DNA of 64,000 nt from positions 1-64,000 of IMG/VR virus record IMGVR_UViG_3300037339_000405. The stretch is one strand, 5' to 3'. The number at the start of each line of letters is the position of its first letter. Positions within the stretch are counted from its first letter, which is position 1. Origin of the DNA: a virus. Of this stretch, positions 1,905 through 64,000 are shown one piece after another. The position numbers and the translations under genes are program-made. Under the pieces are notes generated by a model, which did not search any database, had not been told where the DNA came from, and worked only from the letters and a program-made list of their open reading frames with translations.

Positions 1905-2877
1905 GAGTCACATGAGCCCGCAAGTGTTCTTGTAGTACTCCCAAAAGCATAGCCCCCGGGTCTTTGAACGACTCACGCTTGTAGCGCACAATCTCCACCC
2001 CCACCGAGTGCTGAAGTGCCTCCCCCACAAGGTGCGCCGCCTTGGCTCCCGCCATATCGTTGTCAAAGAACACGACCACGCGAGGATAGTAAATCAGCTG
2101 CTCCAGTTTGATGGCGCTAAGTCCCGTAGACAAGTTCGCCATGACATTGCGGTAACACCGAGACACGTTGATGGCATCGAACTGACCTTCTACCAGCACC
2201 ACAGGCTCAGCCGTTGTAGTGAAATGCTCGCCGTACCACACGTGCGCTGTGTTGCTCACCAAATTCCACTTGTAGTCATGATGGTAACGCCCCTGCACCC
2301 CGCGCCCTCTGGCCCCGGCAAGGTAACCATCTCGATTCCAGAAGGGTGCAACGACAGCCTGCTTGCGCGAATCCCAGCGCAGATCCCACCTACGCGCCCA
2401 CGCGGAACTCACGGGCTGCCGCCTCTGCGCGAGATAGCTACGCGCTGCCGGAATCTCTTCCACCGGGGCAAACTCCTCCAGCCACCACGCAGGCCACGGC
2501 TCAAACTCCGTCTCAGGGGTGTGAATCCTGTAGGCTTCCCAATCCTCCTTCGGGGCAACGAAGCCCGCCAGCCTCTGCTCCTCCAGAAAATCAAACGCTG
2601 CAATCAACTGCACATGACGCGGGCTCGGTCCATGCGTAGACGCGTCATGCATCAACTCCACCAGAAGCGTATCCACCGTCCCCTTGGTGTTACAAGCAAA
2701 ACAGTTGAAGTGAGAAGCGCCCGTGTCAATCGTGACCCCAAAGGAGGGCCGACTATCCCTGCCAGATGAATGACGAGACCAACCGAAGGGGCACGCGCCG
2801 CGCACCCACTCGTCGCCCTCCTCGATCTGGTCAACGTCCAGTAGCCCCAGCAGCTGTTTGATCTGATTTGCTTGCAT
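1885..2877 (-). CDS. dnaG: DNA primase (Zn-binding domain plus TOPRIM)
   Basis: CPF...H...D.RPSF...FNCFAC zinc-binding domain; TOPRIM motifs 'LVEGQFDA', 'FFDND.AG' and 'KDPG'. Confidence 0.92.
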   Translation of the reverse strand: MQANQIKQLLGLLDVDQIEEGDEWVRGACPFGWSRHSSGRDSRPSFGVTIDTGASHFNCFACNTKGTVDTLLVELMHDASTHGPSPRHVQLIAAFDFLEEQRLAGFVAPKEDWEAYRIHTPETEFEPWPAWWLEEFAPVEEIPAARSYLAQRRQPVSSAWARRWDLRWDSRKQAVVAPFWNRDGYLAGARGRGVQGRYHHDYKWNLVSNTAHVWYGEHFTTTAEPVVLVEGQFDAINVSRCYRNVMANLSTGLSAIKLEQLIYYPRVVVFFDNDMAGAKAAHLVGEALQHSVGVEIVRYKRESFKDPGAMLLGVLQEHLRAHVTLDIPRI

Positions 2878-2880
2878 ATG

Positions 2881-2905
2881 AAAAAATCCCCAGTCGCCCG
2901 GGGGT
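2881..2905 (-). terminator. Intrinsic terminator-like hairpin plus U-tract immediately 5' of the primase start
   Basis: Minus strand reads CCCCGGGCGACTGGGG-ATTTTTT-CAT-ATG. Confidence 0.55.
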
Positions 2906-2966
2906 AAATCGCAGCAGCTTACAGTCTCGGAAGGGAGCCCCCGCGTCTAGCGGAGGACAAATCGCG

Positions 2967-3398
2967 CTAATCCTGTTCTTTGGGTTTCCACGCAGCCTTG
3001 CGGGTGCCGGTACGATCAGACGCTACCAGCGCCGCAACTTCTTCCGGGGTGAGGTACTTGTCCACATCGCCCAGAGTCACCTTGGCGACTTCCATGAACA
3101 CCTTCGGCCCCATCGCCTTCTTGACGGCAGCCAGATCGAGGATCTGACGCTCCACCGGCTTCTCGCTGAACTCCAGCACCCCGGTAGTACCCTCGAATGA
3201 AACCACTTCATCCGGAGCCGCCTTGTCCTCAGCCTCGTCGCGCAACGCGCGTTTGATCTCCTCGGCTCGTTTGGAGTACTTGGCCACCGCTGCCACTCGC
3301 GCCACACAATCTGCATATTCATCCACCAACAGCGTAGTGGTGTCCGGCTTGACAGCCTTCTGCTCCTTCTGCTTCTTGCTCGTGATCGTCACGCCCAT
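2967..3398 (-). CDS. Hypothetical phage protein (coiled-coil)
   Basis: 143-aa ORF with an AGGAG RBS and its own consensus promoter. Confidence 0.75.
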   Translation of the reverse strand: MGVTITSKKQKEQKAVKPDTTTLLVDEYADCVARVAAVAKYSKRAEEIKRALRDEAEDKAAPDEVVSFEGTTGVLEFSEKPVERQILDLAAVKKAMGPKVFMEVAKVTLGDVDKYLTPEEVAALVASDRTGTRKAAWKPKEQD

Positions 3399-3428
3399 GT
3401 TCGCACTCCTTGCGTTGGTTGAGAATGT

Positions 3429-3456
3429 ATTATACCACTTAGTTGCCGAATGTCAA
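3429..3456 (-). promoter_or_regulatory. Consensus sigma70-type promoter TTGACA-N16-TATAAT with extended -10 TG
   Basis: Minus strand reads TTGACA ttcggcaactaagtgg TATAAT. Confidence 0.85.
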
Positions 3457-3466
3457 TGAATAGTTT

Positions 3467-9091: not shown

Positions 9092-9118
9092 GATGCCTCC
9101 TTTGCAATCAACTGCAAG

Positions 9119-11769: not shown

Positions 11770-14700
11770 TCAGGCTAGGCTGCGCTTCAAATACACCGTC
11801 AACGGCTTCGCGTCTTCCTCCACCAAAAGCACCTCGCGCTCGTCTTCCGTGATGAGCGTCACCGTTACTTCTAGCTCCTTGAGGAAAACCAACTCAGCAT
11901 ACTGAACAAACGCGTCTTCGATGTAATCCGATACGGTTGCTACAGGAGGGCTGCTGTTGATCGCTAGCGCAGACACCCCCGTAATCAGTACCACGCTCCC
12001 TTGTGTAAAGGAGACCGAAGGCGCCTTGCCCGTTACGACCAGAACCCCAACTTCAGGGGCAACGATGGCTACGGATAGCGCGGGGGTACGCCCTGTCAAC
12101 ACCAGAGCGGCAACCCCGGTATTGATAACCACACTAGCAGCGACTACCGCAACCGGAGACGGCCCAACAAGAACCAGCAGCCCTACCCCACTACGAACCG
12201 CCTGATCGAGTACCGGAGTTTGCCCGGCAACTACCAGCGCGCCCGTGTCAGCTACAACCGCTCTATCAAGAGACGGAGCTTGGCCTACTAGGGTCAGGAC
12301 ACCTTTTTGGGTAACTACACCACTGTCAAGAGCGGGTGGCGCGCTGATGAGCGTTAGCGTCCCAGCCCCCGTAGACACGGACACGGTTTGCCGCAGCGTC
12401 GGAGCAAAACCAGTGACCAGCAGCGTCCCAGTAGCGACCGTTACTACGACATTGCCGCCGCTAACTACTGAAGGTTCTTGCCCTAGAATCGTTAGAGCAC
12501 CAACCCCAGCTTGGATCGACCAGCTAAACGCTGGCACGTGGCCGGCGAGAACAACCTGCCCAACATTCGTCGCAACAATTACATTCTCGCTCGCGCTAAC
12601 GACCGGTACCTGCCCCGTGAGCGTTAGTTGCCCTGAGTCCGTGGAAACCCCAACCCCTGAAGTCGGGGCCAGCCCGACAAGCGTCAACGCTCCTTCTTGA
12701 GTAGCTACACCCGTATCAAGCGTAGGCGACGCGCTGGCGAGGGTAAGAGCCCCCATCTCTGTAGAAGCCGATAGGGTCTGCCCCAGAGTCGGAGCAAGGC
12801 CAGTAATCGACAGCGCCCCAACATCCGTTGAAACCCCAACCCCCAAGGTCGGAGTCAGCCCGGTGATCGTAAGAGCCCCTGAGCCCGCAGCTACAGCGTA
12901 GTCAAGGGCGGGAACAAGCCCTGTAAGAGTGAGTGCCCCTGCTGCCGTGCTTACAGAATGCCCCAGAACGGCCCCGTAGCCCTCTAGGACGAGGTTTCCC
13001 ACCCCCGGCTGTACGGTGACCAACCCCCCCGTCTGAGCGATAGGGGGATGCCCTGCGACCAGCAGAAGGCCCTGATCCGGAATTACGTAGAACGGCGCGA
13101 TGGAAAGCGGGAGTTGCCCAGCAAGAACAAGAGACCCCAGCCCCACGTCAACCGCTAGACCTAGGCTGGGTGCTTCTCCCGCAAGGGATAGAACTCCCAC
13201 ACCCGGGCGAGAGACCTGATCAATGAGAATCGAAGGCGCGTTACCCGCAAGGTCGAGGGCACCAACACCAGTAGCTACCCCATACCCCAAAGTTGAAACA
13301 GAACCAGTGACCGTTAGCTGACCGAGGCCAGTATCTACCGAGTAAGTCTGCTGAACTCCCGGAACAAACCCGAGAATCGACAGTTGCCCGCAATTAGCTG
13401 CAAACCCAAGATCAAGAGAAGAAACAAGGCCACCAACAACCAGCGCCCCCGTTCCGGGATTGATGAAAGTATTCGTGGTGACCGCTACAGTGGATACTTT
13501 ACCTTCGAGCACCAACTGACCTAGGCCCGAAGAGACAGTAGTAACTACGAGAACAGATGGTGAATTCCCTGCTATTACCAGCGACCCTACTTGTGGCTGA
13601 GAAACAATCTCTGCAAGAGATACCGGTACATGCCCGGTGATGACTAGTTGGCCAAGACCACTGAGTACAGCCTGATCAAGAAAAGGAGCATACCCAGTGA
13701 TAACAACTTGCCCCAGACCAGTAGAAACAGACTGATCGAGGACGGGCGCAAAGCCCGTGAGGACAATCTGCCCAACCCCCGGAGTGATGCTGATTGACAC
13801 CCCAAGAGCCGGAACATGCCCTGTAAAAGCCAGAGCACCAACGGCGGTGTTAAGCCCAAAGTCTAGGGTGGGTACCCTACCGTCAAGAGACAGTTGACCA
13901 ACACTTGATGAAACCGTAGTAGTTACGAGTACGACAGGGAGGAGCCCCGTTACAACCAGCGTGCCTACTTGGGGCAGAACAACAACCGAAGCAAGAGCGA
14001 CTGGTACCTGACCTGTAAGGGCCAGTTGCCCCAAACTTGGAACCACCGCTACATCAATACTCGGTGCGTGCCCTGTGAGTACAAGTCCACCAACACCAAT
14101 CAGGAGTGCATTGCCAAGAGCAGGAGCTTGCCCCGTCAGAACAAGGGCACCAGTCCCCGGTAGTGACGTGACCCCCTGAGAACCCTCTACAACAACGGGA
14201 AAATGCCCGGTGATTACTAAACCACCGACACCCGTTGCAATTAGTTGCATCAGAGTGGGTACATGCCCACTCAGAACAAGCGATCCAACACCAACGTTGA
14301 ACCCGAAATTCAGCGTCGGCTCAAGTCTTGAATCCGGGGTATCTAGGAACCCATCACCCGGGAACAGCCACTCATCGTGCCCAGTTGGCTTCTCAATAAA
14401 GCCATGGCCCGGAAGGAGAAGCTGCTCTAGCGCCCCAGAGGGGCGATCAAAGCTGAGTCTCCCGGTTGCCGGTAACGCAGACCACGTTTGGCCAAGGGCG
14501 GGCGCAAGTCCGGCGAGAGACAAAACTCCCGTGGCTGACACCACCCCTACATTGAGAGTGGGCGCAAGACCGGTAGCAACTAGCGCGCCAACACCGGGGG
14601 AAACAGAAGCGCCAGCAGAAGTAGCAGGAGTGGGGGCTAGACCCGTTAGAACTATGGAGCCAACAGCCGCCGTTAACCCTATGTCGTTCGTTGGGGCTTG

Positions 14701-19553: not shown

Positions 19554-19606
19554 TATCGTTCTCTCCAGACTGCAATTGATTGCAAGCTACTTATCTAAGG
19601 CACCCC

Positions 19607-25514: not shown

Positions 25515-25596
25515 CTCTATCTCCAAAAACCACGCTTGCAATTGATTGCAAGCTTCACCGGCAACAGCCTACTCCACCTAACGAATCGGGGCAACT

Positions 25597-27710: not shown

Positions 27711-30026
27711 TCAAACCACCGTCGGAACCTGCCCTGTTATCACCATGGCCCCAACATCCATGTGGATACTGTGAACCGCTCGCCACCCAGTCAACACCAA
27801 CACTCCGCGCGAAACGATGATGTTCAAAGCGATCACCGGCACTTTCCCTGTCACTACCATACTTCCCTTGGCGGGAGCTATCGCAAAGCTTAGCTTCGGA
27901 GCGTACCCACGAACAACCAACTGCCCCGTTGCGGGGTAGCTGATGGGAACCACCAAGCCCGGCGCAAAGGTCGTGACTCTCAAGAACCCGGTGCCGGTAG
28001 GCACGCCCAACGCCGACATGGACAGCACATCCATGGGTATCGCAACCAGAATCTCCTGAAACACCTCGTACTCAATCGGATCGGTGTCAACGGCGAGTAT
28101 ATCCGGAGCAGTGACTCGGAACTCTGTCGGATAACTAGCCTCCAACAGGAGAGTCTCCCCCGGGGGCGGTACCGAGTAGTTCCCACGATAACCTTGCCAC
28201 GACGTAGCCAAAGGTCCGGACGCTGCGTGCGCGCCGTACTCCACTGTCATTGCAGGAGGAGGGGGAATGATGGGCGGATCAGGCACAGGAGGCGGCGCCG
28301 GGGCCGCCAACGGCGTGCTCTGCTGAATGCCTACCGCAGAAATGCTCGACAGCGCCAACTTCACGTCCATCGTGGCCGCGCCGGTATCGTTGTCCATCGA
28401 AAACACGAATTGCCGCACCTTGCCCTTGGCCCTGAGTCTGTCGTAATCAATCTCCACCGTGTGCGGCAAATCCAGAACCGGGTTCAACAGAGCTTGGAAC
28501 CGCACCGAGCTTCCTCTATGGCTCGCCTTGATCGTGGTGGAGGCTTTGGCGATGAGCGTCAGCACCGCAGCATCGGATTCCACTCTCCCGTTACCGGCTT
28601 CATAGTGGTAATCCAGAAAGGGCTCACCATTACTCATCTCGCCAAGGTCAGTCGGGGGCACCAGCCTGCTCGATTCCCACGCCTGCGAATCGAACTTCAC
28701 CTCCATCGCCCCGGAATCAGTAGATTGCAGGATGCCCACCTCGGTGATCGACAGGGGGCAGGACACCGTGATGGTGTACTGCTCAGTGATGGGCTGCGCC
28801 CACCGCCGCATCAGCCAAACGCTGCCGCCCCAGCAAAGAGTCTCCCGCAACCCGGGATTGACGTACCAGATGCCTCCGTAGATGGCCTGATTCGCCGGGA
28901 TCTCGTAGAACGAGACCCCCATAAGATCCCAGCCGGAAATGCCCCCCGCACCGCGCTGAATCATCTCCTTAGATGGCAGGGTGAACCCCGAAAATACGAA
29001 CGGATAATTCGGAGCAACCAGCGCATTGATCGCTGGAAGCTGGAACGAGTAGACATAGCTTCTAGCCTTCAACCTCGGAAATCTGAAACCGTACTCGATC
29101 ACCACCTTGTTCACGATCTGCGAGCGGTTGGCTACTTCCACCTCCAGACTGCCATCTATGATGTTGTCCAGTGCAGTGTTGTCGAATTTAAGATCAGCCA
29201 CATCAGACGACGCCCACCCGTAGGAGCGCACCACGCGATACGGGTTCATGTCCACAGACTTGGGCACCGTGCTTGCCTGTGCCTGAAAGTACTCGTAGCT
29301 GTTCATCGTGGGATTGAAAACAAACGGGCTCCAGTGCCCGCCGATCAAAGCGCTGATCTGCTCCCGCGTAAGCTGCCCAACGTAGTTGTTCAGATCGTCG
29401 GTACACTGGAAATTGACCACGTGCAGCACCGGATCATAGGTGGGCACATCCACAAACCCGGTAAACACCCTGACACTGCTTTGCAAGTCGCCATTGGAGG
29501 CGTAGGTTGCAAAGTTGATGGTCACCAGCTTGCCAACCCACGCCGGTATCACCACGTTGGTATCCGGTGGAACCATCTTGAAGCTTGCTATACGGGCTTG
29601 ACCCTCTTCAGCCTCAACCTCAATCGCTCCGGTGCACTGAGTGCTGATGTCCACCCCATCCAGCACTACAATCGATGCCCACCGTGCACCTAGCTGATTG
29701 AAGTCATCAATATCTATGACTTGTATATCTATGTCGTGAACAAACGGCCCGCCGCTCAACTCGCCAACTTTGATTGTCACCGGCAGCGTAACCGGGCTGG
29801 ACCCGAGCAATGCCAACACCGGGCTCACTTCAACCGTGATCAAATCCCCGCTGCTGTTCAACAGCACAAAAGCTTGTGCCGGAATCGGTGCCGCTGTGGC
29901 TAGAACAAGGGTCTCAGAAGTATCTGCAACCGCAAACGAAGAGCCTGTCGCCGCCCCTGCACTTGATTGCACGAGCACCAGACTGCCATCGGCGACAAGC
30001 CCTACAAAGAACTGATCAAGGACCAT
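27711..30026 (-). CDS. Tail tip / baseplate hub-like protein
   Basis: 771 aa; 'IEVEAEEGQARIASF...VTI......RVFTGFVD.P.YD....V.FQCTD' hub-like pattern; downstream of the tape measure. Confidence 0.6.
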   Translation of the reverse strand: MVLDQFFVGLVADGSLVLVQSSAGAATGSSFAVADTSETLVLATAAPIPAQAFVLLNSSGDLITVEVSPVLALLGSSPVTLPVTIKVGELSGGPFVHDIDIQVIDIDDFNQLGARWASIVVLDGVDISTQCTGAIEVEAEEGQARIASFKMVPPDTNVVIPAWVGKLVTINFATYASNGDLQSSVRVFTGFVDVPTYDPVLHVVNFQCTDDLNNYVGQLTREQISALIGGHWSPFVFNPTMNSYEYFQAQASTVPKSVDMNPYRVVRSYGWASSDVADLKFDNTALDNIIDGSLEVEVANRSQIVNKVVIEYGFRFPRLKARSYVYSFQLPAINALVAPNYPFVFSGFTLPSKEMIQRGAGGISGWDLMGVSFYEIPANQAIYGGIWYVNPGLRETLCWGGSVWLMRRWAQPITEQYTITVSCPLSITEVGILQSTDSGAMEVKFDSQAWESSRLVPPTDLGEMSNGEPFLDYHYEAGNGRVESDAAVLTLIAKASTTIKASHRGSSVRFQALLNPVLDLPHTVEIDYDRLRAKGKVRQFVFSMDNDTGAATMDVKLALSSISAVGIQQSTPLAAPAPPPVPDPPIIPPPPAMTVEYGAHAASGPLATSWQGYRGNYSVPPPGETLLLEASYPTEFRVTAPDILAVDTDPIEYEVFQEILVAIPMDVLSMSALGVPTGTGFLRVTTFAPGLVVPISYPATGQLVVRGYAPKLSFAIAPAKGSMVVTGKVPVIALNIIVSRGVLVLTGWRAVHSIHMDVGAMVITGQVPTVV

Positions 30027-36743: not shown

Positions 36744-36810
36744 GGCTCACTCCCTTGGCCTAGTGTTAACTGCAACCGCCTGCAACTAACTGCACGCCCT
36801 CCATGGCATG

Positions 36811-38947: not shown

Positions 38948-38990
38948 ATCACCTCCGATTCTAGGGCTCACAGCGCCTCCTAACAAGCTG

Positions 38991-39488
38991 CTATGAGTGA
39001 TAGCCGAAATAGGCCGAGTTGTCCTGACGCTTCACGGTGAGCATCATGGGTGTCAGCCAGCGCACCACGTGCACATGGTTGTTGCCCATATTGGGGGCGG
39101 GCACTTCACTGACGAAGCGCCATGGGTGCCCCGTGGGGGCTCTCTGTTCAAGCATCGCCAGCCGCAGCTGGTCCAGAATGTTGATAACCATGTTCTTGCG
39201 CTCGGCGCCAGCTATGGAATTGGTGTCGCTGATGACCGCTATGGCGACCTGTAGGCGGGCGCTGATGCCCTCGGGGCCACCCTGCCCACCTTGGATGAGA
39301 CCCTCGTAGAAGACGCCACAGCACGGTTTCTGGACCTGCACAGCGGCATCCAACAAATCCTTCTCGCTGTAGACATAAAACGTGCGGGTTTTGAACTGTG
39401 CAATTGACTGCATGCGCTCAATCACATGATCGAGACAAGACTGCACCACCGTCCCGGGCTCGACATTGAGAGGCACACTAGAGGGCAT
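38991..39488 (-). CDS. Tail terminator-like protein
   Basis: Assigned from position and size (165 aa) after the tail completion gene. Confidence 0.55.
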   Translation of the reverse strand: MPSSVPLNVEPGTVVQSCLDHVIERMQSIAQFKTRTFYVYSEKDLLDAAVQVQKPCCGVFYEGLIQGGQGGPEGISARLQVAIAVISDTNSIAGAERKNMVINILDQLRLAMLEQRAPTGHPWRFVSEVPAPNMGNNHVHVVRWLTPMMLTVKRQDNSAYFGYHS

Positions 39489-42096: not shown

Positions 42097-43347
42097 TCAG
42101 CTGGCGAAGCCTTGCCGGCGCCGGAATGCCTCGCTCTGCTTAGTAGCAAAACGAGAGTTCTTGCGCACGTCATGGAGTGCGGTGTCAATTGCCCCACTGG
42201 AGAAATTGTCACCCTTTTCCACGCGCTGCTGCTGGCGGTCGTCAGCTGGAGCACCGCCGATCAGCTTGCCTTTCGCGGCGGCTTCAGCCTTGAGAGCCGT
42301 GTCCGTCGCTTCTTGCACCTTAGTAGCCAGTTCACCTTGAGACTTGACCACGCCATCCACCTTCTCCACAAGCCCGGTGATCTGGCCCGTCACCTGAGTG
42401 ACAAACCCCTGCAGCGCCTCGTTCATGACACCACGTGCCTGCTCAAGGATCTGTTTCATTGGGTCGGCCTCACTCTCTGAGGCTTTCTTCTTGGCAGCCG
42501 CCTCTTCCTCGGCCTTCTTGGCCGCTTCGGCTGCCGCCGCATCGTCTGCCACTTTCTTGGCAGCGGCTTCGTCAGCGGCCTTCTTCTTGTCGTCCTTCAT
42601 CACGACACACTTGCCGTCCATGAGTTCGTAACCCGGCTTGCAATTGCCGTCTTCGCCCATGTTCTTGTCCATCTCATCGGCCTTCATGATGGCACGGATG
42701 TCCCGATCCACCTTGAACGCCTTGGCGGGGATACCCTTCGCCATGCCCACCACGTAGTTGTGAAACTCGGTGAGTACCCCGTCAATCTTGGACACCGCGT
42801 CCTGCTGCGTCAGCGGATCGATGGTGTAGAGCACCGAAGAGATCGCATCGGCGAGCGCTTGCGAAGCCATGCTCAGCCCGGGGATGAAGCTCTGGGCTTT
42901 CACCAACTCGGTGAATGACCCGCCCTCCGGCCCCACTTGGTAAGGGCTAAACCCCTTGACCACCGCCAGCAGGCTGTCCGACATGCGAACCACGATGGCG
43001 TCCTTCACCTTCGAGAGATCCTCGTCAATCTGGCTGAAGACCACCGTGCCGTCTTCCATCTCCTGCGCCTTGTCCACCACGAAGCCACCGGCCACAATCT
43101 TGGCCTTGATTTCTTCCAGCTTGGCGGACTTCTCGACCACAAAAGCAAGAATCGAGGACGTAACAGCCTCGTCTGCCGCTTTCTTGGCGGCACGCATATT
43201 CAATCCGATTTTTCCGAGATCCAGCATGCCGTTCTCCGTGGATTGTTTGATGATACGAAAAGGGATGCGATTGGCACCCCGGTCCACCAGCGAAATGTGG
43301 GTCACATCGCAGTTGTCCAGCTTGTTTGCAACCAGTTGCAGTTTCAT
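42097..43347 (-). CDS. Capsid scaffolding protein
   Basis: 'ISLVDRGANRIPF.IIK' N-terminus and Ala/Lys/Glu-rich coiled coil; directly upstream of the capsid gene. Confidence 0.75.
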   Translation of the reverse strand: MKLQLVANKLDNCDVTHISLVDRGANRIPFRIIKQSTENGMLDLGKIGLNMRAAKKAADEAVTSSILAFVVEKSAKLEEIKAKIVAGGFVVDKAQEMEDGTVVFSQIDEDLSKVKDAIVVRMSDSLLAVVKGFSPYQVGPEGGSFTELVKAQSFIPGLSMASQALADAISSVLYTIDPLTQQDAVSKIDGVLTEFHNYVVGMAKGIPAKAFKVDRDIRAIMKADEMDKNMGEDGNCKPGYELMDGKCVVMKDDKKKAADEAAAKKVADDAAAAEAAKKAEEEAAAKKKASESEADPMKQILEQARGVMNEALQGFVTQVTGQITGLVEKVDGVVKSQGELATKVQEATDTALKAEAAAKGKLIGGAPADDRQQQRVEKGDNFSSGAIDTALHDVRKNSRFATKQSEAFRRRQGFAS

Positions 43348-43398
43348 AGGAGGGGAGTGTAGAGCCTCCCCAGCCTCCTAACAAGACGTGCAAAACCC

Positions 43399-44399: not shown

Positions 44400-44442
44400 G
44401 GGTTCCTGCAGTTGATTGCAAACGCCCAAATGGTATCGCTTC

Positions 44443-47600: not shown

Positions 47601-48770
47601 ATAGTTGTCGGAAAGAAACTCTCGGGCTTTCTCCCTCTGGTCCCCGGGATCAGGCCCCACCTGCTCCAGAACATCCATTACACCTGTGTCAGTCCAGCGC
47701 CCTGCTTCATCACGCGGTTGGTCGGGGTCGTATTTTGTGATGCTAGGATTTTTTGGGTCAAACGCTCCGGTGTTACCTAGTGCAGACTTGATCTGCTCGG
47801 GCTTGAATACTCCCCAAGTCCAAGATTTACCCTCTTTCACCTTGATCCCATCGTAACCAGCCTTCTGTGCCGCTTCAACAAATCCCGGAGAGGCGATGAT
47901 TTGATAAGCCTTGAACTTCTGCGGCACCCCGTCCACTTCCTCATCTCCGTACTTGCCGACAGTGAACTCCAACCCAGTCGCCTTTCTGGCTTCCGCATAC
48001 GTCATCTTGTCGTTCATGTTGAACTTCAAGGTGATCGGCTTCTTCACGGAGAGCCACACCGGATAGACCGTCGGGTACTGTCCTTCATTCCACGACTTTG
48101 CCCCCGAATACTGGTCAGCGAGAACGGAAGTCACTCCGAACCACGCCACTGGATCTGTTCTGAACTCCTCTATCCCCGTCTCTCCAGTACCGTGTAAAAC
48201 CACCAACGGGGCTCCTTTGGGATCACGAACCTTGCTTTCCCCAAACCACTCGCGGAACTCGGGAGTGCCGGTGACAGTCCAGCGCCCCTGCTCGTCTCTC
48301 GGCTGATCTGGATTGAATTTGGTGATCCGCAACTGAAATGGATCAACCTCGGTGGGACCGAAATTGGTGGTGTCGTCACTGGCTTCCACGTCTGCAATCA
48401 ATTGCAGCATATCGTCCCGCAGCAGTTCCTCAGCATCCTGAAGGATCTGCCTGACGAGCAGCAGGCCCGCCTTGTTGACGACATCGTTGAGCTTGCCTGA
48501 CCCGGCCGCTGTGCTGCTCGCGCGCTCGGTCACGCGCGTGGCACCCACAAGCAGGGCCGCGCGTGTGTAGTACTCGATGGACTTGAGATTCTCGTCTACA
48601 ACTGTCTGCAGGCTGATTGAATTGGCGATCTGCGTTGCCAGCGCGTAGTCGCCCTTCTGCAGGGCAGACTTGACCTTACGTCCGATCTCGTTGGAAACCG
48701 TGAACCAGCTGCGGGTCAGCTTGTTGGCAAGCCCCTGCTCAACCGACAGGTAGGCTTCAATTGACGCCAT
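44622..48770 (-). CDS. MuF (minor head) polyprotein carrying two clear and one probable ADP-ribosyltransferase domains and a C-terminal JAB/MPN domain
   Basis: MuF motifs 'D.KICPVC..MHG' and 'PPFHPFCR'; ART-PolyVal-like 'F.EWFG.SKV.D..G.PLVV.HGT...GYDGI...F.P.QIKS..GN.G.FD'; VIP2-like ART 'VYRG..FTSTS..ENEFIL'; 'LYHVT' ART-like domain; JAB 'E...HNHP...SLSDMD'. Confidence 0.85.
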   Translation of the reverse strand: MASIEAYLSVEQGLANKLTRSWFTVSNEIGRKVKSALQKGDYALATQIANSISLQTVVDENLKSIEYYTRAALLVGATRVTERASSTAAGSGKLNDVVNKAGLLLVRQILQDAEELLRDDMLQLIADVEASDDTTNFGPTEVDPFQLRITKFNPDQPRDEQGRWTVTGTPEFREWFGESKVRDPKGAPLVVLHGTGETGIEEFRTDPVAWFGVTSVLADQYSGAKSWNEGQYPTVYPVWLSVKKPITLKFNMNDKMTYAEARKATGLEFTVGKYGDEEVDGVPQKFKAYQIIASPGFVEAAQKAGYDGIKVKEGKSWTWGVFKPEQIKSALGNTGAFDPKNPSITKYDPDQPRDEAGRWTDTGVMDVLEQVGPDPGDQREKAREFLSDNYGDYTANLPAAQGIALGNYTGIGYRVINEYLRSGLGSEETLSYTKEHVAALDKAIEGAPPLKESLAVYRGMGGPLAKAVAAGDEFVDNGFTSTSLSSSKAADFAFTPGEVVARIIVPAGYKGLGTGAGTENEFILARGTKFRVLSVQEDVPVSMRVTEDEIIKRKMVMLEIVSQEQRALKSAAPSKRIGQRFVWRASDVVFSRGRATTKYDPDQPRSPAGTSEGGQWARSNEPPEGKRERFDASMMEDAGVAGLNYDQIVERLGSAEAVHELFDKKRVKERAWDAQMMRALAMGTITPESAAKQGFFLQANLSGAEKLENLPDELYHVTTAVSAVMEHGLKTREELGQGLGRGLGGGTSDTISFTEDKGTAVAIENAMLLMHDVLNEKVSLEDLIGKATLGEEAKQPYMDFITRIWGGAVSKRGIPLELDASTRNRTVMFIGPLDKRWPKDTPFSTDPKIVAGKLGGSWQSEGEGFYSRPATEVEQTETRMRFVQRFLAGRENAGGALDPLFFMTDAEALKNIGRQEIKVLQVSPKKGTRGYKVSSLGEWRAWTGDVVETVRTLDRKTVIWRAEWQEEGQPRYPLHLRRVSKELTKSLIQPFVSFRDGGRGYMQMVSALHTTRVAAYGFTSEAEILGVERYAINEQLDNKICPVCRAMHGRTFTVVSARNTLDVVLSVDDPQELRTLQSWPSQRASDVEKLRNMTEEEVVARNWHIPPFHPFCRGQLVPLGQVPNIEDTPSFQAAFPDRIKQPVHTDLGIEQITSAPPLTGRSAVQQAHETASKYVLNQPDSAEREYLYAFNRSGEEVLTKGGTKSYVDFTMEEAARLSGTTVYHNHPMGRSLSDMDMLLASNWGIDKMLALTSEGTTYAGRVKEFMGNIDAMREFNLLYRDVYQKAAAEFYSAIRPFVQAGRVHENVAAVAHTHFVNQVMHRYGLLDYVVEKAGPGFLHDVAMVEGLIDVKAVQARIDVLKSLQMPPINPSFLIHEPLEAIA

Positions 48771-53799: not shown

Positions 53800-53993
53800 G
53801 CCTTCACCACACGCGTGTGCTTGCCGATCTTCACGCCCATGTAGATCACGTCATAGTGCAACAGCTTGCCACCCGGCACCGCCACACTCTCTTCCTCCAA
53901 ACACGGCACCAGAATCACCGGCTCAGGGCTCAGCCCGAGAAACAACGGACCCAAAACAATAGTGTCTTCTTTTCGCACGGCTACCCGTGGCAT
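53796..53993 (-). CDS. Hypothetical small protein
   Basis: 65-aa ORF overlapping its neighbours in the operon. Confidence 0.5.
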   Translation of the reverse strand: MPRVAVRKEDTIVLGPLFLGLSPEPVILVPCLEEESVAVPGGKLLHYDVIYMGVKIGKHTRVVKA

Positions 53994-54817: not shown

Positions 54818-54846
54818 TGTCCCGCACTCCGTTGCTCCATATGAGT

Positions 54847-54874
54847 ATGGTACTACATCTGGCTCAAATGTCAA
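54847..54874 (-). promoter_or_regulatory. Sigma70-type promoter TTGACA-N16-TACCAT
   Basis: Read directly from the minus strand. Confidence 0.65.
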
Positions 54875-56603: not shown

Positions 56604-56634
56604 TCCGTTGCAGTTGATTGCATCAGACTACATA

Positions 56635-57171: not shown

Positions 57172-57535
57172 TGCCGGACTCCTTTCCTAACTGGCACATT
57201 GGACAGTATATCATCCGACTGACCAACCCTTCGTCACAAAAGTCGCAGCCGTCACCATTACAGTTCTCACAGCCGTCAAACACGGCCAGCTTCCCTAGAT
57301 CCCGACAGGTTTTACACGTGTACCCGGGAGCCCAGCCATCAACCACCTTCAGATCCATCACACGATTCCCCTCCACTCTGAAGAGAAATTCGTGCCATCG
57401 GCGGTTGCCCTCCGGATGTGTAACCCGGGCTGAAGCAACTACCGCAGATTGCAACTGGCCTGCGTCCAACCCAAATTCTTTAGCCCGGCGCAGCAGATGC
57501 AAAGGTATCGTAAAGCCCCGCTTTGCGTAGAGCAT
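57143..57535 (-). CDS. Zn-finger protein (four CxxC pairs, DnaJ-CRD-like CxxCxGxG)
   Basis: CKTC, CENCNGDG, CDFCDEG and CPMC. Confidence 0.65.
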   Translation of the reverse strand: MLYAKRGFTIPLHLLRRAKEFGLDAGQLQSAVVASARVTHPEGNRRWHEFLFRVEGNRVMDLKVVDGWAPGYTCKTCRDLGKLAVFDGCENCNGDGCDFCDEGLVSRMIYCPMCQLGKESGNGKGAIPSQ

Positions 57536-57827
57536 ACAGCGATTCTCGCAGAATCTTGATCTCCCGTGGGGCTTCAATCAGCAGTCTGGCCAAGACAGAC
57601 TCGTTGGGCCTTGGATCACCACTTGACTTGTAAACCCGCTCCCTCGGCCTGCCCATGCTGATGAATACGCCGGGGTACACCTCCACCGACTCTTTATCAG
57701 TGATCGTGTAGAACGCGGGACCACACTTCAGAATCGCGTGCTCATGCCCTTTCAACAGCACCACGTGCACTTCTTCATCATCAAGATAGAGTTTGTCTCC
57801 CTCATGAATTCCTAGAGCGAGTGCCAC
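57480..57827 (-). CDS. CsrA/RsmA-like RNA-binding protein (extended)
   Basis: C-terminal 'ARLLIEAPREIKILRESL' matches the CsrA signature VR(L/I)GIxAPxx(V/I)xI(L/H)REE; the N-terminal strand pattern is also CsrA-like. Confidence 0.6.
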   Translation of the reverse strand: MALALGIHEGDKLYLDDEEVHVVLLKGHEHAILKCGPAFYTITDKESVEVYPGVFISMGRPRERVYKSSGDPRPNESVLARLLIEAPREIKILRESLYALRKAGLYDTFASAAPG

Positions 57828-58272
57828 GGCGGGCTCCTTTGGAAAAGATCAAACGATGCGCAGCTTGGGTCAGAGACCATGTGCTACCACCCGACACTCC
57901 TTTACGGGCTTGCACAACCATAACCAACCCTCGAATGCGCAGCACAGTCAACTGGGACGCCACTTCACTTGGCGTATGCTTGTCGCGCCGCCGCAAGTTT
58001 AGCATTTCGGTGATCTCGCCGGTAGTCGCCGCCTCCAACGCTGCCAGCTGCATGATGCACCGATGCAGATTGCTGCCAGCTTCCGGCAGCCGCACCTGCA
58101 TGCTGGTGTCAAAATGCTCGATGATCATCTCTTTCAGTCTAGTCTGGACCACGCGACGATACCCACAGAGACATCGCAGCCACACGTCCTGATGGTCTCG
58201 CTGAAACCACGCAGACAAACTTAAGCACTTCGGGCACTCTACTTTTTCCCGCATGCCATCCGCAGTCCCCAT
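57802..58272 (-). CDS. Zn-ribbon plus winged-helix putative transcriptional regulator
   Basis: CPKC...CLCG ribbon, then 'ATTGEITEML......SEVASQLTVLR.RGLV......G..GGSTW.LT' wHTH. Confidence 0.7.
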   Translation of the reverse strand: MGTADGMREKVECPKCLSLSAWFQRDHQDVWLRCLCGYRRVVQTRLKEMIIEHFDTSMQVRLPEAGSNLHRCIMQLAALEAATTGEITEMLNLRRRDKHTPSEVASQLTVLRIRGLVMVVQARKGVSGGSTWSLTQAAHRLIFSKGARRGTRSRNS

Positions 58273-58305
58273 GGGACCCGGATTGTAACCCGCTCCTTTT
58301 TGCAG

Positions 58306-60495
58306 TCAACTGCACGAGAGCACCGATGTGGCCAATTGCCTACGCGACACGCCCACCGTAACCACCGACGCATACTTTCCTTTGGGCAACCCTCTCGCGG
58401 GGGAAAACAACGTCAGCTGCTCGGCAGCACTCTGCTTCAGTTCCAGTACTTTAGTAAGGGCGCGCGGATCAAATTTCACACCGCCCTCTTGGTAGTCAAG
58501 CCACACCAATCCAGTCTGACTCACAAGAGATCCAATATCCTCCACCACGTCCATCACGCGATACCCCATGGCACTCAGTTTCGCAACCAGCGGAGGCGTG
58601 AGCAGATCGTGCGGCAGAATCCAGAAATTCTTCACCGGGTGACTTTTGGCGAACTCAATCAGAAACTCAATCTTCTTTATGAACACGTGCACTGAATTCG
58701 GCAGAATCTTAGGCTCCAGTGTCTGCAACAGATCGTAGTCACCACCACCGTTAACTTGCAAGCACAACAGAGTCATATCAATCACCATGGTGCGATTGCC
58801 AGCAGCCTTCAGCACCTCCAGAAAATTCGTGCCCCGGAACCCGTCGATCTCCATAGCATATGAAGCAAAAAGCACCTTGTCACCTGCTGCAGCCACTTCA
58901 GCTGCATTGGTGCACGTCTCGAATACGCCATACCGGGTGAACAGCATCGAATAAAACTTGTCCACCTCACTACTCATGCCTGCCAACACCGGAACCTCAA
59001 TATCCACCCACACGCGCCCAGTGTCACCGCACAGTGTCACCTTGCTACCCTTAGTGATCGCGCTTATGTCACCGCATCCCACCACGCACGGCAGATTCAT
59101 ATCACGCGCAACCACAGCAGCGTGCGCTGTTGAACCCCCAGTGCGGGTGACGATCCCGCGCGCTGCGCGCATACCCTTGATATCGTCGGGGTTGGTTTCG
59201 TCAGTGACCAGAATCACGCCTTCAGCACTCCTCTGCTCAGCTTCTTTGGAAGAGAAAACCGCGAACCCCGTTGCTACGCCACCGGAAGCAGCAATACCCT
59301 TCAAGGTCTCCTTGCCAGTGAACGATGCCGGGATAACAGGCTTGGCAGCCTCAAACAACTGTGCAAGTGTCACGTGTTTGACTGCCATATCCAGATCGAT
59401 CAGATTGGACGCCGCCATCTCAGTAGCGATACGCAGCGCAGCCCTCGCAGTACGCTTGGCAGCACGGGTCTGCAACACATAGGTGAGCCCTTTCTCTACA
59501 GTAAGCTCCACATCCTGTGCATCACCGTTGAAAGCCTCCAATTTCTTGACCGTGGTGAACACTTCTTCCGCCACGTACTGATCCCACACGGCTAGCTGAT
59601 CGATTGGCATGGGAGTCTTGATGCCCGCCACCACATCCTCTCCCTGTGCCATCGGAAGAAACTCCCCCACCACTTTGTTTTCGCCGGTAGAAGGATCACG
59701 CGAGAATGCGACCACGGTACAGCTGTTCACGTCCAAATTGCCGAAAACCATCTGCTGGATCACCACCGCCGTGCCAAGATCATGCGGGATGCCATTCATA
59801 TCACGGTAGACTTTTGCGCGCTCGTTACCCCAACTGGCGAACACCGCGCATATGGACTGAATCAACTGGCCCTTAGCCTTCGGAAATTTCTGGCCGGTCT
59901 CCTTCTCGAAAAGCTTGAAGCGCTCGCGCAACCCAAGGTTCTGAAACTTGTGGCGCTCGATGCCGAATACCACACTGCCGAACATCTCAACCAGCTTGCC
60001 ACGCACTTCGTCAGCGCAACTCTGCCCCAAACTGGCTCTCCAATGACTAGCGTTGGTTTCATCGATGCCCACGTTGAGAATTGTGTCCATCATGCCGGGC
60101 ATAGAAAACTTGGCGCCGCTACGCACGCTCACCAGCGGCATCACGTCACCCACCCCCTGCATGGTATTGATTATTTGCGGCAGCAGTTCGTTGAGAAGTG
60201 AGACTACCGCATCAGGGTCCTGCATATAGAGCTTGCAGGCCGTCACCGGAATGATTATGGCAGGAGGAACTCGAAACCCAGCCCGGTGCATACGCACCAG
60301 ACCGTAACCCTTACCCCCAAGTAAATCCAGATCCTCGGGAGCGTTATCCAACGTGTAGAACGGGAGCCCTTGCATCTCGCACTCCTTTGCCAGACCCATG
60401 CCTGCAATGATACCAGATTGGTACTGCTTGTCAAGCTCCTCCGCGTAAGCCTGCTGCCATGATTTAAGTGACGCCGGCAGCTTCTTCTTGACCAC
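58306..60495 (-). CDS. PPDK-derived dikinase: ATP-grasp plus phospho-His swivel domains, with an unrecognised C-terminal domain instead of the pyruvate-binding barrel
   Basis: 'LGGKG', 'VSVRSGA..SMPGMMDTILN.G', 'QQMVFGN', 'AQGEDVVAG..TP', 'LQTR..KRT' and catalytic 'GGSTAHAAVVAR'; 729 aa, and no barrel motifs in the last ~225 aa. Confidence 0.9.
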   Translation of the reverse strand: MVKKKLPASLKSWQQAYAEELDKQYQSGIIAGMGLAKECEMQGLPFYTLDNAPEDLDLLGGKGYGLVRMHRAGFRVPPAIIIPVTACKLYMQDPDAVVSLLNELLPQIINTMQGVGDVMPLVSVRSGAKFSMPGMMDTILNVGIDETNASHWRASLGQSCADEVRGKLVEMFGSVVFGIERHKFQNLGLRERFKLFEKETGQKFPKAKGQLIQSICAVFASWGNERAKVYRDMNGIPHDLGTAVVIQQMVFGNLDVNSCTVVAFSRDPSTGENKVVGEFLPMAQGEDVVAGIKTPMPIDQLAVWDQYVAEEVFTTVKKLEAFNGDAQDVELTVEKGLTYVLQTRAAKRTARAALRIATEMAASNLIDLDMAVKHVTLAQLFEAAKPVIPASFTGKETLKGIAASGGVATGFAVFSSKEAEQRSAEGVILVTDETNPDDIKGMRAARGIVTRTGGSTAHAAVVARDMNLPCVVGCGDISAITKGSKVTLCGDTGRVWVDIEVPVLAGMSSEVDKFYSMLFTRYGVFETCTNAAEVAAAGDKVLFASYAMEIDGFRGTNFLEVLKAAGNRTMVIDMTLLCLQVNGGGDYDLLQTLEPKILPNSVHVFIKKIEFLIEFAKSHPVKNFWILPHDLLTPPLVAKLSAMGYRVMDVVEDIGSLVSQTGLVWLDYQEGGVKFDPRALTKVLELKQSAAEQLTLFSPARGLPKGKYASVVTVGVSRRQLATSVLSCS

Positions 60496-60817
60496 GCCCC
60501 CACCCCCTCATGGCTACGCGCAGGTTGGGATTAGGATGCAACCGCCTCCATTCGTCAAGCACGCTAGGTGGGCGCTTCATCATGGGAGATCCCGATTCTG
60601 CGCGCCCCGCGCGTGGGTAGAGCACATACCTGTCACCCAGAAAAGACACGGCCTGCTGGCGACGCTTTTCCATCCTCTCGCGCGCTTCGTGCACCCGCTG
60701 CTCTTCCTCGTCAGGATCAGGCACCGCCACCGCCGCGTTCACTGGGACATACTCTTCCCGCTGAGCAAACGCGCTACCGGCTTCCCCTTTCATTACAGCC
60801 GCAATCCAGCTGAGCAT
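60464..60817 (-). CDS. Hypothetical protein (likely start MLSWIAA at 60817)
   Basis: GGAGG RBS at 60823-60827. Confidence 0.6.
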   Translation of the reverse strand: MLSWIAAVMKGEAGSAFAQREEYVPVNAAVAVPDPDEEEQRVHEARERMEKRRQQAVSFLGDRYVLYPRAGRAESGSPMMKRPPSVLDEWRRLHPNPNLRVAMRGWGRGQEEAAGVT

Positions 60818-60843
60818 ACCTGCCTCCGTGCAATCAATTGCAA

Positions 60844-62397: not shown

Positions 62398-62425
62398 ATG
62401 ATACCACGTACAGCAGGATTGTCAA
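62398..62425 (-). promoter_or_regulatory. Sigma70-type promoter TTGACA-N16-TATCAT driving the early/accessory operon
   Basis: Minus strand reads TTGACA atcctgctgtacgtgg TATCAT. Confidence 0.75.
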
Positions 62426-62430
62426 GCATT

Positions 62431-62452
62431 AAAAAAGCGGGCCTAGCCCGCC
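62431..62452 (-). terminator. Intrinsic terminator
   Basis: Minus strand reads GCGGGC-TAG-GCCCGC-TTTTTT. Confidence 0.8.
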
Positions 62453-62473
62453 TTTACAGATACCCGGAGACCC

Positions 62474-62677
62474 CTATTTGGAGGGGGCCAACGGGTTTGC
62501 CTTCAGCCAGTCTTCATAGGCTTTGCGCTCATCAAGATCACGCAGAGCCTCCAAAGGAACCCCTTGGCGAGCAAGCGAGCCATAGAACTCATCTGGGCTA
62601 AACTTGCGTACTTCACCCGGGTCATTCTCATACACGTCCTGCCTGTGCGGCGGGATAAACACCTTGTCGGCTGCCAT
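62474..62677 (-). CDS. Small acidic protein downstream of the zeta toxin (antitoxin candidate)
   Basis: 67 aa, AGGAG RBS, co-terminated with the zeta gene. Confidence 0.6.
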   Translation of the reverse strand: MAADKVFIPPHRQDVYENDPGEVRKFSPDEFYGSLARQGVPLEALRDLDERKAYEDWLKANPLAPSK

Positions 62678-62685
62678 GCTGTCTC

Positions 62686-63813
62686 CTAACCCAATGGGGC
62701 CTTTCTCACTGAAATCCTCGGCAAGCGGGTCGTCACCGGCTTGGCTCTGACCCCTTTACCAGTAGCGCTGTCGTACTCAGCAACTTTAATCGCCGGCTTG
62801 TCTCTTGCCACTTCGTTGTTGAACACAGACCATTTCTCAAAGTGAGTAGACAGCTGCTCAAAATTCTTCTCATTGTTGAAGCCACTTAGAATTGCTGAAG
62901 GAGGAACCAGCCTCCCACGCTGACCCGGTCCCTTGCCTCTCCACCTTTCCACCGCACGCTGCGCCGCTAGCTGCGGGGGCAAATGGACGAAAGCCCCCTG
63001 TACACTGTAACCAGCCTTGGAAAAACTGGTTATCCTATCTAAAGCTGGGTCATAGCTCTTCATCGTAGCGTCAAGAACCACGTTATACCCGGCAGCTTTT
63101 GCTCTTCGTGCCGCCATATCAAAAAGATGCCCGCTTTCCTCATGGTAAATGGCAGCCTTGGATTCCCAACCCTTGACTTTGTCACGCTCGGCCAGCCTCT
63201 CCTTGAAGTGATCGGCATCAATCACAAGAGTCTTAGCCGGATCATACAAATGCAGAGACACTGGCCGAGAATCACTGCGTGCACCGCTTTTTCCACTGCC
63301 TCCACGCCCCCCCAATACCAAAGCCGTTGGTGCAACACCCACCGGCGGTATAGCGTTAGCGGCACCCTTGAAGAACTCAACAAGGATCTCATCATGCACC
63401 TTCGTGCGTTCCGCACTAAAAGAATCTTTCGTGGCCCCGGCATGAACCATGTGAGTACTTTTGCCGGCAGCTATATCTGCGTCCACTGCGGCCATTTCAC
63501 GCAGAAACTCCGCATGATCCGCCTTGCTTAACGTAGCAAAGAGGATCTCGTCTTCTATTTCAGCCCTCCCAGACTGGGTTTCTACTCGCGGGTCGGCGGA
63601 CTCATTGAATAGAGAAGACGCGGAACCTCCGGGGGTGACCCTCTCTCCCGGCCGCGCATTGATGGCTTCTCGTACCTTTACCGGGCGCTTGCGCACCATC
63701 GCGCCACCAACACTGGCGCCTAACGATTTAATCCACTTACCATATTCATCCCTAGGCTGGCTGGGGTCGAATTCCTTACGGACGTTCTGGAAAATGGAAG
63801 GGATGTTCAACAT
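62686..63813 (-). CDS. Zeta-toxin-family P-loop kinase with an N-terminal DPxQPRD tag
   Basis: 'LGGRGGSGKS', 'VIDAD.FK', 'HEES', 'NVVLDAT' and 'A..RA..R....GR.VP'. Confidence 0.85.
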   Translation of the reverse strand: MLNIPSIFQNVRKEFDPSQPRDEYGKWIKSLGASVGGAMVRKRPVKVREAINARPGERVTPGGSASSLFNESADPRVETQSGRAEIEDEILFATLSKADHAEFLREMAAVDADIAAGKSTHMVHAGATKDSFSAERTKVHDEILVEFFKGAANAIPPVGVAPTALVLGGRGGSGKSGARSDSRPVSLHLYDPAKTLVIDADHFKERLAERDKVKGWESKAAIYHEESGHLFDMAARRAKAAGYNVVLDATMKSYDPALDRITSFSKAGYSVQGAFVHLPPQLAAQRAVERWRGKGPGQRGRLVPPSAILSGFNNEKNFEQLSTHFEKWSVFNNEVARDKPAIKVAEYDSATGKGVRAKPVTTRLPRISVRKAPLG

Positions 63814-64000
63814 CAGGCAATCTCCATAGGACTGCCCGCCATTATACGCAGCCAGCGGCTCCTAACCAGCGCTGCTAGAAGGCTCCCCTGCCAACATTTG
63901 CACTTGCTTGCACGCTAGGGGCTTGAGTGCTGTGCGCTGCACAAGTGCATCGTCCTGTTTAGCCTTTCGGCATCAAGTCCAGCAGCCGCTTTCGCCGCAA

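Follow-up and report, generated by a model that had tools for sequence, protein, structure and literature searches.

Dispersed TGCA palindromes in a family of siphoviruses: candidate duplex sites for a phage-encoded dimeric protein

Dispersed sites for a global regulator are known from several mobile elements. We describe here a case that appears to be a new variant of this kind, with a family-wide reach: a 14-bp palindrome, TGCA-RY-YR-RY-TGCA, scattered over positions 1 to 64,000 (the window) of the 95,622-bp IMG/VR virus record IMGVR_UViG_3300037339_000405, a phage genome of about 96 kb that we label G000. A first described system is that of the Cluster A mycobacteriophages such as L5 and Bxb1. 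Their stoperators are dozens of repressor sites distributed genome-wide, most of them away from promoters and few being true operators, with a consensus that co-varies with the repressor of the phage itself and an orientation biased with respect to transcription (PMC6550527, PMC9283540). They are asymmetric sites of 13-14 bp bound by a monomeric two-domain repressor (PMC9283540), and are mostly intergenic. Like stoperators, the palindrome has many dispersed copies (26 in 95.6 kb), most of them off promoters, and its consensus appears to co-vary, over about 58 genomes and contigs, with a candidate protein that we call K. Unlike stoperators, the sites are palindromic, regularly spaced and for two thirds intragenic at conserved codons, and the candidate appears to carry a ParB-type helix-turn-helix (HTH). 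Stoperators keep one orientation with respect to transcription; the centre of the palindrome shows a 2:1 bias for CA over TG on the coding strand, stronger in the phages RcZahn and RHph.

KorB of plasmid RK2 has an N-terminal CTPase domain; it reaches promoters by sliding over distances of up to 1.5 kb and is then locked by KorA (PMC11790492). As in the KorB-OB system, in which a palindromic operator is dispersed over the 60-kb replicon RK2 and read by a global regulator with a ParB-family DNA-binding domain (PDB 1r71, 8qa8), the sites of this phage are both promoter-proximal and distal. Unlike KorB, K has no detectable ParB_N domain and is not known to have a KorA-like partner, and the copy number here is 2-4 times higher, with regular spacing. 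The OB operators of RK2 fall into promoter-adjacent, promoter-distal and intragenic classes.

Another parallel concerns Noc with NBS, SlmA with SBS and MatP with matS, where palindromes of 12-16 bp, dispersed in tens of copies and often intragenic, are bound by ParB-like or other HTH dimers that organise a whole replicon and not single genes. Such systems serve cells in placing the division site or in organising chromosome domains, whereas the palindromes described here belong to a phage, and we know of no phage counterpart with regular spacing. Phage P1, whose plasmid prophage is about 94 kb long, has about 20 dispersed C1 operators, which are asymmetric 17-mers at promoters; the present sites are likewise dispersed, but they are palindromic and also intragenic. 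They differ from ParABS, in which parS is clustered by the parA-parB operon and the ParA ATPase is a partner, in being evenly spread. The lambda CII box TTGC-N6-TTGC, direct repeats that straddle the -35 of CII-dependent promoters, is contained in TTGCAA..TTGCAA and a few sites overlap a -35; no CII-family protein was found among the scanned proteins, a subset of the open reading frames (ORFs), and general scans of these proteins gave no LacI-family match. Operators of the LacI family are palindromes of 14-20 bp with a central CG. The motif strings had no match in the phage literature searched, and the DLP3 and RcZahn papers mention no repeated palindrome.

We propose, with a probability of about 0.5, that the palindromes are duplex sites for a phage-encoded dimeric HTH protein, most likely K, in a genome-wide operator and roadblock network. 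Throughout, gene calls are simple longest ORFs, promoter calls are consensus matches, and all functional statements are inferred from sequence.

Enrichment, conservation and spacing of the palindrome

The window contains 19 copies of TGCA-N6-TGCA, against 1.97 +/- 1.37 (maximum 7) in dinucleotide shuffles, and the whole genome 26 against 2.6 expected. When TGCA-TGCA distances up to 40 were scanned, enrichment was observed at 10 only. The strict form TGCARYYRRYTGCA occurs 17 times genome-wide, with 14 copies in the window; a synonymous-codon shuffle that keeps every protein and the codon usage gave 1.5 +/- 0.7 (maximum 4) and a codon-order shuffle 0.03. The over-representation claimed in the initial annotation is thus borne out under all three null models. 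That annotation had counted 17 copies for about one expected, and the exact figures are 19 and about two; copies beyond its list lie at 1292, 52314 and 63899, all with spacers outside the RY pattern. Its fourteen copies with an RYYRRY spacer agree with the 14 that fit TGCARYYRRYTGCA.

A search with the capsid protein returned over 80 loci from IMG/VR. Its matches in cultured phages were the Delepquintavirus group (DLP5, DLP3, Summit), RcZahn, Rhizobium RHph phages and Vibrio siphoviruses of about 80 kb; a megablast of 12 kb against cultured phages gave no match. Most 20-kb loci had several copies each, at any GC content from 42% to 64%. As the initial annotation had suggested comparing, the motif is kept across related siphoviruses of 80-120 kb (Stenotrophomonas phages DLP5 and Summit, RcZahn, V-YDF132, RHph_Y1_11 and many IMG/VR contigs), with 15-52 copies each: 37 in Summit, 28 in Rhodobacter phage RcZahn, 33 in Vibrio phage V-YDF132 (25 of them identical TGCAATTAATTGCA), 15-30 in Rhizobium phage RHph_Y1_11, and 29, 30, 45 and 52 in four IMG/VR genomes. 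The family consensus is TGCA-AT-YR-AT-TGCA, and G000, with its relaxed form, stands at the degenerate, low-copy end. This family includes the Stenotrophomonas maltophilia therapy candidates DLP3, DLP5 and Summit, and the sites suggest a regulatory scheme, open to experiment, for a sizeable and little-studied group of phages, some of which (Vibrio, Rhizobium and Rhodobacter phages) can be grown in the laboratory.

Some relatives have switched palindrome. One genome (G002) has TGCAGAYRTCTGCA only, and another (G005) has 36 copies of TGAWCTYRAGWTCA with only three TGCA-N6-TGCA, about chance level. Other lineages use GGCA..TGCC, TCCA..TGGA, TGAT..ATCA or TGAAAACGTTTTCA. These switches between relatives, together with the 42-64% GC range, indicate that the reader is phage-encoded and not a host factor, and we consider it quite probable that a dimeric DNA-binding protein of the phage reads the sites. 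The initial annotation had proposed a dimeric, genome-wide binder. This part is supported by symmetric, phage-specified sites acting at the DNA level, as judged from their symmetry, lineage variants and promoter placement; the binder it named is not supported, and the host regulator it considered is unlikely.

The sites are also evenly spaced. Gaps had a coefficient of variation of 0.40-0.61 in nine of the ten genomes, where randomly placed sites would give about 0.95 (P <= 0.004); the value for G005 is 0.77 (P = 0.06). No gap exceeds about 11 kb, and in the four genomes tested the gaps were all far more even than under random sampling of gene starts. Furthermore, copies occur at shared alignment columns in proteins that are only 30-50% identical, with all three frames used, as seen in the helicase, the PPDK-like enzyme, the second phosphatase, a tail gene (window 39399) and the MuF gene (window 48393). 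We counted 25 coincident site pairs in orthologous genes for 0.59 expected. For G005, there were 5 for 0.09 expected, though its motif and the encoded peptide differ: sites stay where they are, and their sequence evolves along with the reader. Judged from these alignments, site positions are under selection. Even spacing and an intragenic position kept after a motif switch are unusual, and suggest genome-scale organisation over gene-by-gene control.

Non-coding DNA makes up about 5-8% of these genomes, yet it holds about 17-46% of the copies; the share inside ORFs is about 55-85% by genome, or about two thirds. The central dinucleotide is CA, TG or TA (YR) and hardly ever CG, and CA is preferred over TG on the coding strand in non-coding DNA (39/54, P = 0.0015) as well as in coding DNA (89/145, P = 0.008), a polarity of about 2:1. 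The coding strand is also the G-rich strand throughout the genome.

Each site is made of two inverted half-sites, TGCA-R-Y, around the 2-bp centre, with a symmetry that holds by purine/pyrimidine class and not by strict base pairing. RNA folding of the copies at 44407 and 56609 would leave A-C mismatches. In RcZahn, the A-C orientation was found five times and the G-U orientation never, and a common variant of RHph_Y1_11, TTTCA, disrupts the stem. An RNA hairpin is unlikely because of these patterns, since A-C and C-T mismatches between half-sites would break its stem. Across the family, intragenic copies are read in all three frames (QSIA/QLIA, AINC, CNQLQ), imposing Cys codons. Altogether, the signal lies at the level of DNA and not of protein or RNA, where a dimeric protein on duplex DNA would fit, and it has shaped the coding sequences of these phages.

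Sites in the window and their relation to promoters

The minus strand carries about 94-96% of the coding in the genome, and all genes at the window copies lie on it. Contexts are therefore given on the minus strand, and coordinates are kept on the plus strand.

1292..1305: non-consensus copy, spacer AGGGAT
2599..2612: copy in the primase gene 1885-2877 (minus strand; Toprim domain), codon 89, read V-Q-L-I-A
9103..9116: intergenic copy, 2 nt past the upstream stop; on the coding strand it abuts AAGGAGG-N4-ATG
14236..14249: copy in a 1782-aa gene, codon 957, read M-Q-L-I-A
15583: one-mismatch copy in the same 1782-aa gene and frame as the copy at 14236
19571..19584: intergenic copy, with the start of gene 18165-19553 17 nt downstream
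25537..25550: intergenic copy after TTGCCC-N17-TAGGCT and a GTTAGG element; ATG 22 nt downstream
29958..29971: one-mismatch copy TGCACTTGATTGCA, codon 19 of gene 27711-30026
30226..30239: copy in gene 30034-31911, codon 558, read M-Q-L-I-A
36771..36794: two overlapping copies (three TGCA, 10-bp period) following a terminator-like hairpin
39399..39412: copy in the tail gene 38991-39488, read M-Q-S-I-A, at the same alignment column in G003, G004 and Summit
43327..43340: scaffold-gene copy, codon 3; the -10 of a late-type promoter-like element, TTGTTAGG-N-TACACT (43350-43384), is 15 nt upstream
44407..44420: copy with a -10 (TTGACC-N18-TACCAT) 9 nt upstream and the protease ATG 7 nt downstream
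48393..48406: copy in the MuF-like gene 44622-48770, read L-Q-L-I-A, at the same alignment column as a G003 copy
52314-52327 and 63899-63912: non-consensus copies
56609..56622: copy between a strong promoter-like TTGACA-N18-TAGTAT, its -10 being 9 nt upstream, and the ATG of a 359-aa gene, 11 nt downstream
58301..58314: copy including a -35-like TTGACT, with TACAAT 17 nt later, upstream of gene 57802-58272
60829..60842: intergenic copy, GGAGG 1 nt on and the ATG of a 117-aa gene 11 nt on

The overlapping copies at 36771 and 36781 precede the pre-tape-measure gene 36291-36743 by 27-37 nt. The three copies at 1292, 52314 and 63899 may be chance or decayed sites. The initial annotation had placed the copies at 9103, 19571, 25537, 36771/36781, 44407, 56609, 58301 and 60829 shortly before start codons and the one at 43327 in the first codons of the scaffold gene, had noticed the triple TGCA, and had read several intragenic copies in frame as Q-L-I/V-A. 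These descriptions were found to be correct, the in-frame reading being more exactly Q-[LS]-[IV]-A; this frame is used in G000 because the other two need a Cys codon.

Copies are enriched at promoters and immediately before ribosome-binding sites. Many abut Shine-Dalgarno sequences, and several are placed at defined distances from promoter-like elements. Copies at 56609, 44407, 43327 and 25537 lie 9-15 nt downstream of -10 boxes. Outside the window, those at 75308 and 75939 overlap a -35, that at 84656 fills the spacer, and those at 91380 and 81105 lie 8-16 nt upstream of a -35. The order promoter, palindrome, ribosome-binding site and protease gene is common to this phage, Summit, G004 and V-YDF132. 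In the latter, 12-13 of the 33 copies stand 6-8 nt upstream of a TTTGACAAAAC -35. These promoter-adjacent sites are in operator-like positions, which do not account for the conserved intragenic copies.

An element TTGTT[AC]GG-N-TAnAnT precedes head, tail and lysis genes family-wide, with palindromes at recurring offsets of +31, +15, -16/-18 and -35. It probably represents a late promoter type. With an N13-17 spacer, it occurs at 38986 and 43384 in the window, at 68773 outside it, and at 3196, 4040, 8965 and 26129 in Summit. A sigma-54 promoter was rejected: the GG is absent and the spacing is 10 instead of 11.

Very strong sigma-70-like promoters of the form TTGACA-N17-TAnnAT were also found, at 3456, 6917, 8154, 54874, 60434 and 62425 in the window and at 65053, 65325, 66239, 71990, 74212, 80042, 81088, 87041 and 95061 outside it. 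Most of them precede a near-identical leader with CAAAGGAGTGCGAG-ATG at its end, and they front accessory (moron-like) genes across the genome; such sites number 39 on the coding strand and 12 on the opposite strand. V-YDF132 has an intergenic cassette of about 80 bp, made of a CAGTTGTTC-like element, TGCAATTAATTGCA and then AACCCGATTTGACAAAAC-N17-GACAAT, which occurs about a dozen times (for example at 14937, 16378, 23619, 41559 and 79474; L143-L147), which gives the impression of a promoter-operator module duplicated to many places.

Protein K as the candidate reader

Protein K is encoded outside the window and belongs to the core of about 27 genes common to all ten complete genomes compared.

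Genome 90419-91288, minus strand: protein K, 289 aa, present in all 10 complete genomes

In 8 of the 10 genomes, the K ORF is preceded, at a distance of about 70-105 nt, by a palindrome; in G000, this is the 91380 copy, with TTGACG-N17-TACACT 8 nt further on. The AlphaFold (AF2) model of K has a pLDDT of 78 and a disordered N-terminus, and its residues ~52-180 resemble ParB-family DNA-binding domains. With Foldseek, ParB, Spo0J and Noc came out on top (7nfu among the matches; probability 0.9-0.98, E 0.14-1.3). With VIA, the ParB DNA-binding domain bound to parS had a Z of 7.7, KorB with its operator 6.6 (106 residues aligned of a 114-residue chain), Spo0J 6.6, and P1 ParB and SopB about 4.4. 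ESM Atlas neighbours were annotated as HTH_ParB, DUF3102 or DUF1016_N. The putative HTH reads FKELVQDKFG-LHYRKAMYLIQIY, with Y107, R108, K109 and Y112 invariant in 25 homologues.

We compared helix and palindrome in the ten genomes and 48 further contigs. In about 30 genomes, TGCA-type sites are accompanied by the helix core YRKAMYL or YRKATYW, and each non-TGCA motif pairs with a unique helix: DRTIRYM with GGCA..TGCC, RSKAFHL with TCCA..TGGA, YRVGLWY with TGAAAACGTTTTCA, YRKCMYL and YRKACYL with TGAT..ATCA, and YRRAMYF with TGAWCT..AGWTCA. In addition, YRTAxYW goes with the variant TGCAAC-AA-AYTGCA, this RHph-type variant recurring in contig L202. On these grounds, we rate the chances that K is the binder as about evenly balanced. 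If K does bind, the family would provide a natural series of matched protein-site specificities on a ParB-type HTH, which could serve the study of how DNA-binding specificity evolves and be a source of orthogonal operator-repressor pairs.

Other candidates were examined and set aside. Protein D (genome 94566-95054), with a MerR/Xis-type HTH and a PHROG annotation as transcriptional regulator, is not universal, and its helix varies among genomes with the same motif. Most relatives encode a ParB_N protein upstream of the terminase gene, which PF02195 did not detect in G000, G002 or RcZahn; the neighbours of the terminase gene in G000 gave no ParB match. Three universal small proteins of 122, 143 and 183 aa showed no obvious HTH once aligned. 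Homologues of K of about 400 aa (P0044, P0045, P0056, P0061 and similar) are found on large bacterial contigs, for example of Nitratireductor and Hyphomicrobium, and one of them has a histone-H1-like Lys/Ala-rich region (PF07382). These longer versions seem to be prophage copies that have gained a DNA-binding tail.

We propose the following mechanism. K would be made early from its own sigma-70-type promoter, and the palindrome just upstream could ensure its autoregulation. It would then occupy about 25 sites, one every 2-7 kb. Some of these lie between the -10 and the ribosome-binding site (44407, before the head protease, 56609, 43327 and 25537), others over the -35 (58301, 75308 and 75939) or just upstream of it (81105 and 91380). 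A K dimer at such a promoter would act as an operator-bound regulator, probably a repressor, while the conserved intragenic sites could be roadblocks, bridging anchors or a titration sink. In this way, the whole one-strand genome would be controlled, being, for example, silenced in the plasmid-prophage state reported for DLP5 and DLP3, or timed during lytic growth. Whole-genome silencing fits because DLP5 and DLP3 are reported to be temperate phagemids (PMC5834331, PMC7326821), and timing by titration is the alternative. The analysis shows enrichment, conservation, even spacing, conserved positions, association with promoters and co-variation with K; binding by K, the sign of the regulation and the role of the intragenic sites are what we infer here.

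A more tentative version of this mechanism would be a phage-wide chromatin, in which CTPase-less, ParB-HTH-like dimers on regular palindromes block or bridge the DNA every 2-4 kb, for silencing of the plasmid prophage or as a copy-number timer. In the latter case, replication would multiply the sites, titrate the protein and thereby release the late head promoter. If this reading were true, in-place specificity switches, affecting both the palindrome and the recognition helix, would define immunity groups, which would span a very large uncharacterised family of Proteobacteria siphoviruses of 80-120 kb.

Several observations weigh against K as the reader of an operator network. Neither G002 nor G005 has a palindrome upstream of K, and G002 has the helix core of G000 with different inner bases. 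Pfam, NCBIfam and PHROGs yield no named function for K. Its fold matches are modest by their E values, Z scores below 8 may reflect a common helical arrangement, and the top VIA match is Raf1 (Z 9.1). The co-variation of helix and motif is partly confounded by phylogeny. Several contigs with K gave no clear palindrome with our simple detector, which relies on perfect outer arms of 4 or 5 bp and misses degenerate or asymmetric motifs, so that a missing motif is not evidence of absence. PF02195 (ParB_N) had no match anywhere in G000 while it was found in 11 of 14 control genomes, and KorB-like sliding cannot be assumed for the distal sites because K is devoid of this CTPase domain. Finally, a plain operator model predicts neither the even spacing nor the 2:1 polarity.

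Alternative readings and neighbouring genes

These last two features are at the heart of the main rival, according to which the palindromes are DNA-metabolism signals such as lagging-strand priming, helicase or primase loading, nicking or recombination hotspots. A core replication or recombination protein would read them on one strand, and nicks could prime strand displacement by the T5-like polymerase. Sites that recur evenly every 2-4 kb in nine genomes out of ten, more evenly than gene-start sampling in the four tested, would suit such a role, as would site positions fixed irrespective of gene boundaries and a polarity following the coding, and hence G-rich, strand. The universal core consists mostly of replication and recombination genes (two DnaB-like helicases, a primase, a SNF2-type helicase, a RecA-like protein, RuvC and the T5-like polymerase), K itself is encoded at the end of the replication module, and its model weakly resembles domain IV of DnaA (Z 5.3). 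On the other hand, non-coding sites are over-represented 5-8 times and stand at recurring distances from -35 and -10 boxes and from ribosome-binding sites, neither of which priming would need. The polarity is only 2:1, and many sites are unable to form a good hairpin. We thus regard this rival as rather unlikely.

The initial annotation had put forward another protein, A, as the dimeric binder.

57802..58272, minus strand: protein A, zinc ribbon and MarR/ArsR/PadR-like winged HTH; model pLDDT 80

Protein A would be autoregulated through the copy at 58301, which overlaps the -35 of its promoter-like site; G002 too has a copy just upstream of A, and one residue of the protein A helix (Y/Q/H/F) loosely tracks the motif class. 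Protein A is core to the Delepquintavirus-like subgroup. A full-sensitivity profile search with filters off found no homologue in RcZahn, V-YDF132 and RHph_Y1_11, which have 15-33 copies of the same motif. Moreover, a Q-type protein A co-occurs with strict TGCAATCAATTGCA (L121/L122), its helix is identical in a contig with GGCAATYRATTGCC sites (L125 and L181 being the same contig, motif GGCA...TGCC), and Summit, G003 and G004 have no site near the gene. With a homologue undetected in motif-bearing relatives and a helix unchanged where the motif changes, protein A now appears a very improbable binder. Neither A nor K had a significant match when PDB sequences were searched with their profiles.

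One could also assume that the phages exploit a conserved host protein, such as a nucleoid protein, a sigma factor or a global regulator. Indeed, the core GCAAT-YR-ATTGC is near-identical in gamma- and alpha-proteobacterial phages, and the motif includes TTGCA and TTGC-N6-TTGC, which resemble -35-like and lambda CII-box-like strings. This is nonetheless highly improbable, as close relatives differ sharply in their palindrome (G002, G005, L181, L206 and L186), motif changes follow the helix of a phage protein, and phages from 42% to 64% GC, whose hosts must be very diverse, share the motif.

The least probable reading of all is an RNA hairpin located 5' of ribosome-binding sites and controlling translation, processing or stability, for instance through a CsrA-like protein (57480-57827): the copies that adjoin Shine-Dalgarno sequences, the single-strand gene layout with its coding-strand polarity and the conservation of the CsrA-like gene nearby would speak for it, but two thirds of the copies are intragenic at conserved positions, those upstream of -35 boxes are outside the transcript of that promoter, and the stem, only 4-5 bp long with a loop devoid of GGA, is destroyed or weakened by the mismatches described above.

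The gene at 57480-57827 encodes 115 aa, whose C-terminal part matches the CsrA signature LIEAPREIKILRE with a Pfam E of 4e-5, below the cut-off. Homologues are found in Summit, G002, G005, RcZahn and RHph, and the product may be a phage CsrA-like RNA binder. The adjacent gene, 57143-57577, has a GNRRYH motif and a zinc-finger-like CxxCxGxGC motif.

A direct terminal repeat of exactly 127 bp is present at the two ends of the record (genome 1-127 and 95496-95622). This is a common assembler k-mer size, and the repeat probably reflects a circular assembly, or assembly overlap, and not true genome ends. The stretch is contained in sediment metagenomes, and one sediment metatranscriptome has a few short, near-identical contigs, which show no differences over the stretches listed below; this library may contain DNA, so expression is unproven.

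Window 58428-58585, 58799-59012 and 60548-60698: stretches matched by the metatranscriptome contigs

The region 53981-60495 encodes a PPDK-like dikinase, two Cys phosphatases and two unknown proteins of 359 and 297 aa. It is part of the core of about 27 genes common to Stenotrophomonas, Rhodobacter, Vibrio and Rhizobium phages, and is therefore not an accessory island. By homology with Summit, the gene beside the portal gene, 50976-53417 (813 aa), encodes the T5-like DNA polymerase. Outside the window, genome 81125-83965 (946 aa) corresponds, again by Summit homology, to the large terminase, whose sequence is split by an intein that carries an HNH endonuclease.

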